Shown here piece after piece: positions 4,205 to 5,352 of a DNA stretch of 53,298 nt. The translations under genes were made by a program, and so were the position numbers. Source of the stretch: a virus (lineage: Duplodnaviria > Heunggongvirae > Uroviricota > Caudoviricetes); IMG/VR virus record IMGVR_UViG_2558860170_000008. The stretch is one strand, 5' to 3'. The notes beneath the pieces were generated by a model, which was not told the DNA's origin, did not search any database, and saw only the letters and a list, made by a program, of their open reading frames with translations. Positions within the stretch are counted from its first letter, which is position 1. Each line of letters begins with the position of its first letter.

Positions 4205-5104
4205 TCATTCACTCTCTTTCAAACCAGTTTTAACTGTTTGTGGTTTTGGGTAAGGCTGGACTTTGAATAGCTTTGTGTTAAGGCGTTTTCTGGCTCTCTT
4301 GTCCAGAAACCGGATGTAACGAAACTGACGGAATTTATGAACACTGGCTCTGTCGATATTAGCCCGCAGATGTTCACCTCGCTGTCCTCCTCGTTTGATT
4401 GCATTCTTGCAAATCTCGTGATACCACTCGCCATCAAGTTCATAGAATGTTGTTTCATGACTGCCTACATAATCAAAATTGCTTGCCTGGTACACGACAC
4501 CAAGACAGCCACAACGCTCATCTGCAAACGACTGAACCCACTGCACCTGCGGATAAAGTTGTCTGATTAGTTTGAGCGCGTAACTGATTGCCCTTGATTC
4601 GGAGTTTCTCGGCATACAGTCATGCAGCCATAACCGGTTAAGCTCCATATATTCGCGGTTCTGCGTGCCAGTTACGACGCGTGCACCATTGTTTGGATTA
4701 AGGGCATAACCCCATTGCATTACGCCAACCAGCTCCCGTTCTGAAAATATGCCCAGATGAAGGTAGGAATTATTTACGAAACGATGGCTGTAATGTTTAT
4801 TGACGACGACCAGCCGGGCCAGCCAGCAACTTATTGTCTCAACCCGTAACTCACGGGAGCCATAACCGACGATATTGTCGTTATAGTGAATAAGTTCAGG
4901 CGTGCTGATGATACGGGATGTAACTTGCTTTCTGTTCCCCACGACAGGATTTCCTTGTGTATGTGGGGTGCTCTGTGGCGCTCTGAGATGTGATTTGATT
5001 GAGGGTTTTACAGCGCGGACATTTAACTTCCAGATAACTGAAGCTGGCTCGTGCCAGTAGCTTGTTACAATGTCGGCACCGTATGTTTCGATACATGGCC
5101 GCAT
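4205..5104 (-). CDS. mom: Mom-like DNA-modification protein; start codon uncertain
   Basis: Long ORF in a different frame overlapping a Com-like zinc-finger gene at the prophage right end, which is the Mu com-mom arrangement; no in-frame ATG/GTG/TTG near the com stop, so the start may be the ATG at 5104 or a non-canonical start near 4900. Confidence 0.55.
4896..5096 (-). CDS. com: Com-like zinc-finger translational activator of mom
   Basis: [35 protein letters not shown]... has the CxxC...CxxC spacing of Mu Com; ATG at 5094-5096; immediately precedes and overlaps the mom frame. Confidence 0.7.
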
Positions 5105-5142
5105 AACCTCCTGCTTTGTTGTTGATATCTTTATCACTCAAT

Positions 5143-5162
5143 CGATCGACAAAAACGATCGA
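5143..5162. promoter_or_regulatory. Two closely spaced GATC sites (CGATCG palindromes) upstream of com/mom
   Basis: ATCGATCGACAAAAACGATCGAT seen directly upstream of com; Mu mom is known to be regulated through Dam-methylated GATC sites and OxyR; functional equivalence here is inferred. Confidence 0.35.
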
Positions 5163-5352
5163 TTTGATTTATTTAATTGATACAACAAATAACACGAAAT
5201 GTCATTAGCGAAAATTTATGAGTTTGATCACTAATTTTAAACGGTGCTGTAACGCATAAGTGCTGAATGATTGTACATTTGAATACCGCAAAGCAAACAA
5301 ATCAACTAATTTATAGAAGTCAATTGGTTAATTGCCAGCGTAAGAGGCTGCT

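Follow-up and report, generated by a model that had tools for sequence, protein, structure and literature searches.

The question raised by the com-mom locus of this virus-derived stretch of DNA (53,298 nt, referred to as the window from here on) is where translation of mom begins, as the initial annotation had recognized the module but had found no canonical mom start near the com stop codon. We find that mom very probably starts at an ordinary GTG at position 4942, the position expected from phage Mu, a reading that draws on homology and on conservation among relatives. The features on which the question turns are the following.

5096..4896, minus strand: com, encoding a 66-aa Com zinc-ribbon protein (ATG at 5096, TGA at 4898..4896; ORF list and Pfam).
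4942..4205, minus strand: mom, encoding a 245-aa Mom protein (probable GTG start, TGA at 4207..4205; Pfam, PDB, and RefSeq).
4942..4940, minus strand: GTG codon at which mom probably starts (com stop codon 44 nt downstream).
4952..4956, minus strand: Shine-Dalgarno-like AAGGA for mom, 9 nt before the GTG.
5107..5111, minus strand: com Shine-Dalgarno sequence GGAGG, 10 nt before ATG 5096, conserved in relatives.

The description of a Com-like zinc-finger ORF overlapping a long Mom-like frame was borne out by profile searches. The com product matches the Pfam family PF10122 (Zn_ribbon_Com) with an E-value of 7.5e-13, its zinc-ribbon cysteines lie at positions 7, 10, 26, and 29 (6, 9, 26, and 29 in Mu), and the gene is annotated with equal coordinates as RefSeq WP_014334043.1 in genomes that are 100% identical here. 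The mom product matches PF25680 (7.8e-78) over profile positions 1-202 of 202, corresponding to amino acids 31-233 of the 245-aa form, and aligns with the Mu Mom structure (PDB 8BV8) without gaps over residues 5-233 (2.4e-123); an NCBIfam scan of Mom matched no family, whereas the Pfam scan did. Residues Arg-103, Ser-116, His-50, Tyr-51, Asp-141, Arg-143, and Tyr-151 of the window protein are invariant in our protein alignment (A3) and are equivalent, in Mu numbering, to Arg-111, Ser-124, His-58, Tyr-59, Asp-149, Arg-151, and Tyr-159. The latter make up the active-site list of Mu Mom, in which Arg-111 and Ser-124 are essential (PMC13219725). We conclude, on the basis of sequence, that the module is a Mu-type com-mom DNA-modification operon in an Escherichia coli/Shigella Mu-like prophage and that its Mom, judged by the family match, is a Mom-family GNAT, i.e. 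a tRNA(Gly)-dependent adenine aminoacyltransferase.

The mom frame is open from position 5137 to the TGA at 4207..4205 and overlaps com. Down to ATG 4720, the in-frame ATG, GTG, and TTG codons are GTG 5137, ATG 5104, and GTG 4942. The initial annotation was right that nothing of the kind follows the com stop codon for about 60 codons, the next one being ATG 4720 (~59 codons on). It looked only downstream of the com stop, however, and therefore missed GTG 4942..4940 when stating that the only standard starts were an ATG that would make mom overlap all of com and a codon ~140 codons into the frame. The overlooked GTG lies 15 codons before the com stop, in another frame than com, and gives the 245-aa product; a start at ATG 4720 would cost 74 residues, 44 of which belong to the Pfam domain (which begins at residue 31). 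RefSeq WP_000528246.1 (738 nt) uses exactly the GTG 4942 start on 100%-identical copies, which sit in tcyL-adjacent DNA, bcsA, and ypdB, and RefSeq/PGAP also uses the equivalent GTG on a 94.7%-identical O157 copy. Further, the window GTG aligns with the GTG of Mu mom (position 658 of our Mu locus, L001). At the protein level, Ser-9 is invariant and Arg-10 and Pro-15 are nearly invariant in alignment A3, and the codons of all three lie upstream of the com stop.

To the loci collected earlier we added 19 genome loci and 80 viral contigs, yielding 50 distinct upstream regions. An ATG, GTG, or TTG is found 21-25 codons before the conserved [VI]G[YF]G motif (VGYG) in 49 of these 50 regions (24 codons before it in the window and 22 in Mu), and in all loci with a recognizable com the com stop codon lies downstream of the mom start. 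The O157/Sp18-type relatives carry a stop in the mom frame at codon -52, so that the GTG at codon -24 is the sole possible start there. Thus, the claim that a canonical mom start is missing near the com stop does not stand, as the homolog alignments, the GUG of Mu, RefSeq, and 49 of 50 loci all give an ordinary start; operons of the Mu type have the mom start within the 3′-terminal part of com, ahead of the com stop.

We considered three other readings of the locus, the least improbable of which is that Mom initiates in a non-canonical manner at or after the com stop, at ATT 4891 or ATC 4873, or by com-coupled termination-reinitiation. Both codons are present within the ~59 codons devoid of ATG, GTG, and TTG, and the frame read from the com stop is 231 codons long, the same as the length of Mu Mom. 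The initial annotation had given 231 aa for such a protein; its arithmetic is correct, but the codon at that point is CCT. Moreover, the 231 aa of Mu Mom are counted from the Mu GUG, which itself lies upstream of the Mu com stop, and the agreement in length is a coincidence produced by 12 extra C-terminal residues in the window Mom. Set against this reading are the canonical, conserved GTG that precedes the com stop by 44 nt and the relatives that carry an ATG at the position homologous to GTG 4942. Because the conserved residues Ser-9, Arg-10, and Pro-15 are encoded upstream of the com stop, we rejected ATT 4891, ATC 4873, and reinitiation at the com stop, and we regard a non-canonical start as very improbable.

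Even less probable is a long, Com-independent Mom read across com, either as 299 aa from ATG 5104 or as 310 aa from GTG 5137. The frame is indeed open from 5137 and ATG 5104 is preceded by GGAGG, but the spacing to this GGAGG is only 2 nt, and RefSeq annotation does not take the ATG 5104 start. The stop at codon -52 of the O157/Sp18-type relatives, which are ~94-95% identical here, falls between that ATG and the GTG and so removes the 299-aa reading; the frame is likewise closed in the Mu-like phage Mu_JNE082796 (at L002:3182) and in Mu, by an upstream stop at codon -33. The 54 extra residues of the 299-aa form match no Mom homolog, the Pfam domain beginning at residue 85 of 299. We therefore discarded both long ORFs on account of the stop in relatives, the poor Shine-Dalgarno spacing, and an extension without homologs. 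Equally remote is a decayed operon in which mom or com no longer functions and the location of the start would not matter, for, although many E. coli copies of this prophage are deleted or defective (e.g. the 10-kb remnant in DLI.5a) and an O157 copy has com but has lost mom, both ORFs are intact in the window, the Mom catalytic residues are all conserved, Mom aligns with 8BV8 over the full length without gaps, the window prophage is full-length (~39 kb, with C, lysozyme, tail genes, and a presumed transposase), and identical proteins occur in many genomes at differing insertion sites.

The GTG start at 4942 also bears on the start of Mu mom. In the Mu record NC_000929, com occupies 35768..35956 and a GTG in the mom frame, 47 nt before the com stop, gives 231 aa, whereas NCBI annotates an ATG (L001:628) 30 nt upstream of this GTG, giving 241 aa. 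The GUG is the start given in the literature, and it corresponds to the 231-aa form used in PMC7261163 and to the 232-residue 8BV8 chain. Removal of 10 residues from the 241-aa Mu Mom, which yields the GUG-start form, is tolerated, and removal of 20 lowers activity (PMC13219725). Among the 50 regions, a start at the GUG position is near-universal, and an ATG or GTG at codon -32 is restricted to a Mu-type subgroup, in which it falls within the 5′ arm of the hairpin that serves as the Com target. As the GUG position is conserved across lineages and the AUG is not, the comparative data favor the GUG (231 aa) over the NCBI AUG (241 aa) for Mu Mom.

In Mu, the GUG start codon of mom is located in the stem of a translation-inhibition structure (PMC6483171). 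RNA folding around the com stop places the window GTG in a comparable predicted stem, next to a candidate Com target, as follows.

4937..4968, minus strand: predicted hairpin equivalent to the Mu translation-inhibition structure (RNA folds; arms invariant in 14 sequences).
4965..4984, minus strand: candidate Com-binding site AGAGCGCCACAGAGCACCCC (match to the SELEX motif; stem covariation).

In the predicted stem, CCCCAC (4968..4963) pairs with GUGGGG (4942..4937), the GTG lies in the 3′ arm, and an inner stem forms over the Shine-Dalgarno sequence. The pairing probability of the start codon is 1.00, the GG pair of the mom AAGGA is base-paired with probabilities of 0.98 and 0.97, and the isolated hairpin has a predicted stability of -11.5 kcal/mol compared with -6.8 for that of Mu. 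The CCCAC/GUGGG stem has invariant arms and is paired in 100% of cases across an alignment of 14 diverse sequences; we note that there is no covariation within the close subgroup and that the arms are also constrained by codons of com (EHPT) and mom (VG). When the upstream 55 nt were shuffled, pairing of the start codon was as strong as observed in 7% of the shuffled sequences and reached P ≥ 0.95 in 42%, and the fold z-score is -1.47. The shuffle test does not discriminate, because C-rich upstream sequence pairs readily with GUGGGG. The hairpin is thus a predicted structure supported by homology and conservation and not by folding statistics alone, which are weak when taken alone. In three distant loci (L011-L013), an AUG or GUG is held in stems of other sequence.

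Directly 5′ of the start-codon hairpin, AGAGCGCCACAGAGCACCCC is predicted to fold as a small hairpin (GCGC-CACAGA-GCAC) with one C.A mismatch. The SELEX motif of Com is NGAGNNCC(N)2-3GAGNNCCNN, and the Com target in Mu is GAAUGCCUGCGAGCAUCCC (PMC6483171). The window sequence is a perfect match to this motif, i.e. GAGNNCC(N)3GAGNNCC, and the Com-target motif, searched for as GAGNNCCNNNGAGNNCC, occurs once in the 53-kb window compared with 0.07 expected occurrences. In the 14 sequences, three of the four stem pairs of the Com hairpin (4-bp stem, C-NNN-GA loop) show changes on both sides (AU/GC/GU, UA/CG, and GC/AU), and a near-identical relative (L034) has a U-A pair where the window stem has the C.A mismatch. 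An Rfam scan of positions 4000-5500 returned two sub-threshold chance hits only and no curated family for the Com target or the hairpin.

The two GATC sites that the initial annotation had placed just upstream of com are likewise there, at 5144-5147 and 5157-5160, 13 bp apart, and a third GATC is found at 5226. The clustered pair forms the following feature.

5140..5164: Dam-site dyad AATCGATCG-N7-CGATCGATT, with GATC at 5144-5147 and 5157-5160.

This perfect dyad is homologous to AAATCGATCG-N8-GATCGATT of Mu, which comprises the second and third Mu GATC sites with the same 13-bp spacing; written as ATCGATCG-N8-GATCGAT, the dyad is unique in the window, with 0.01 matches expected. The two GATC sites lie 51 and 64 nt from the com ATG compared with 78 and 91 nt in Mu, i.e. 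the dyad is shifted by 27 nt toward com. Across the relatives, the distance from the last GATC to the com ATG falls into two classes, a Mu type of 76-83 nt and a short class of 51-57 nt that comprises the window, the loci L007 and L055-57, and a locus in a P2-like prophage. Several short-class relatives have a near-consensus -10 element (TATACT, TATAGT, or TATCAT) 7-9 nt past the last GATC, so that the GATC pair would sit over the -35 region and the spacer. The window itself has only poor -10 candidates (TAAAGA and AAAGAT), which the O157 type does not conserve.

At the weak, C-dependent mom promoter of Mu, OxyR binds, and the site for the activator C lies between the GATC cluster and the -10 element, extending from -28 to -57 (Bolker & Kahmann 1989; Hattman & Sun 1997; Hattman 1999). 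The prophage in the window encodes a C activator homolog (PF08765, 40% identity to Mu C), and a search for a Mu-like C site (TTAT-N6-ATAA) found none near com and one match at 6080-6093 that is compatible with chance. Given the 27-nt shift of the GATC dyad toward com, the C-dependent promoter model of Mu is not transferable unchanged, and the shortened dyad-com distance would be too small to accommodate a Mu-like C site. The motif CAAATC-N3-10-TTTTT, common to the upstream regions of com and lys, gave five hits compared with 0.56 expected and is not confined to late-promoter positions. We tentatively raise the possibility, which on the promoter sequences seems to us somewhat unlikely, that this Sp18-type lineage and several relatives, including the P2-like prophage, have a different promoter arrangement in which the GATC pair straddles the -35 region and the spacer. 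If so, methylation-gated control would act directly at RNA polymerase, and transcription might not need the C activator, unlike at the Mu mom promoter.

With mom starting at GTG 4942, we propose that expression of the operon proceeds as follows. A single transcript would carry com and mom, and com (5096..4896) would be translated from its own GGAGG and ATG. Initiation of mom would take place at GTG 4942, inside the 3′-terminal 47 nt of com (counting the stop codon) and in another frame, where the start codon and the AAGGA Shine-Dalgarno sequence would be locked by the CCCCAC/GUGGGG hairpin plus the inner stem. Com would bind the adjacent GAGNNCC(N)3GAGNNCC hairpin, open the structure, and permit translation of mom, and Mom (245 aa, catalytic residues intact) would then hypermodify adenine in the phage DNA, the product of the Mom family being N6-carbamoylmethyl-adenine. 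The two upstream GATC sites form a dyad homologous to the Dam/OxyR control region of Mu. We infer Com binding, hairpin melting, Dam/OxyR control, and use of the start codon from experiments on Mu and from homology.

In a direct comparison with com-mom of Mu (Mup54/Mup55), the window locus shares the gene order, a mom start 44-47 nt before the com stop and in another frame, a GUG within a predicted CCCAC/GUGGG stem, a putative Com target hairpin just 5′ of it whose loop is C-NNN-GA, and the upstream GATC dyad. It differs in that mom is ~72% identical to that of Mu at the DNA level and ~78% at the protein level, Mom is 245 aa and not 231 aa long (two additional residues at the N terminus and 12 at the C terminus), and there is no counterpart of the upstream in-frame AUG behind the 241-aa NCBI form. 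Further, the predicted hairpin loop is 9 nt longer and has the inner stem over the Shine-Dalgarno sequence, the window has two clustered GATC sites compared with three in Mu (the first Mu site being absent), and the invertase gene gin is directly upstream of com in Mu but 3.5 kb away in the window. The O157 Sp18-type prophage (WP_001443803.1/WP_009668291.1) is closer: its promoter region, com, predicted hairpin, and GTG start are ~94-95% identical to those of the window at the DNA level, and it shares the annotated coordinates and the short promoter geometry; the differences are a few substitutions, the in-frame stop above the GTG that closes the mom frame through com, and the putative -10 region. 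SP18 is described as encoding Mom and its regulator (PMC3299994), and the com-mom locus with its GTG start is a known, already annotated feature. The locus is, hence, an annotated member of the best-studied case of protein-activated translation in phage, and our check mainly removes a false "missing start codon" flag.

In the phages B3, FluMu, and Pnm1, mom is replaced by methylases behind com (PMC3299994). Together with Mu_JNE082796 and a prophage of E. coli E110019, they resemble the window in having a Com zinc ribbon that overlaps the start of a DNA-modification gene, and the latter two also share the GAGNNCC(N)3GAGCACCCCAC...GUGGGG module. They differ in that a C5 or N6/N4 methylase lies downstream of com, whereas the window has a genuine Mom GNAT. 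Mu_JNE082796 (LC727881, L002 3065-4316) is a Mu-like phage that resides within an Stx2c phage and is ~92% identical to window positions 5205-4929, from the promoter region through com. The similarity continues across the putative Com site, the predicted hairpin, and GTG-GGG-AAC and is lost within a few codons of the start. The ORF read from the shared GTG of Mu_JNE082796 is a C5 cytosine DNA methylase (PF00145, 2e-42), indicating that two unrelated enzymes use one GTG start. In the P2-like prophage of E110019, which carries ogr (L029 1488-2421), an N6/N4 DNA methylase gene overlaps that of a Com homolog, accompanied by both the GAGAGCCATCGAGCACCCCAC...GTGGGG module and the short GATC-dyad promoter. 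This indicates that the com-hairpin cassette is found outside Mu-like phages as well. Overall, the com-hairpin-GUG unit behaves as a portable cassette ahead of at least three unrelated DNA-modifying enzymes, with the recombination joint within a few codons of the start.

With regard to its genomic context, the operon is a standard com-mom late operon of the Mu type and occupies the right end of a Sp18-type Mu-like prophage of ~39 kb, which extends from 4077 to about 43097. Its right end in the window is as follows.

4077..4160: prophage right end, with the end at 4077 and three repeats of TTTGATAC resembling transposase-binding sites.

The TTTGATAC repeats lie at 4094, 4116, and 4151, and identity to three genomes that carry the prophage at other insertion sites ends at 4077 or 4076. 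We note that the right end reads TATAGCGCGGCGA, i.e. TA and not the Mu-type TG/CA terminus, and that the left end (about 43095-43099) reads TGTGTAACCAGGTGAATC on the prophage's own strand. At the junctions, CAGC is repeated at both with no clean 5-bp duplication, such that the target-site duplication is ambiguous. The gene content includes the C activator, lysozyme, tail genes, the invertase (8571..9143), and a SASA/DUF6645 protein; a 696-aa ORF (39784..41874) is presumed, from its size and location only, to encode the transposase. Further, the region between the invertase and com (5386-8485) contains four genes that, by the Mu annotation, have no Mu counterpart there, as follows.

6431-8485, minus strand: SASA acetylesterase/DUF6645 protein, 684 aa.
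Within 5386-8485: a DUF1378 gene and a DUF826 gene.
5386-5646, plus strand: a divergent hypothetical gene, 86 aa.

As a separate observation, in E. coli O157:H7 NE 1092-2 (L027 1401-1750) the similarity to the window ends near the com stop and is followed by ycjN; this prophage has apparently lost its end, and with it mom, while retaining com. In the window, the prophage is inserted in the tail-fiber pseudogene of a cryptic prophage beside ipaH and pinE, and the empty insertion site is present in E. coli VL7S7 (L111). The host flank (window positions 1-4076) comprises this cryptic-prophage remnant, with pinE, an ipaH type III secretion effector gene (932-2758), a DUF4376 protein gene, and the tail-fiber pseudogene, a context that is Shigella/EIEC-like.
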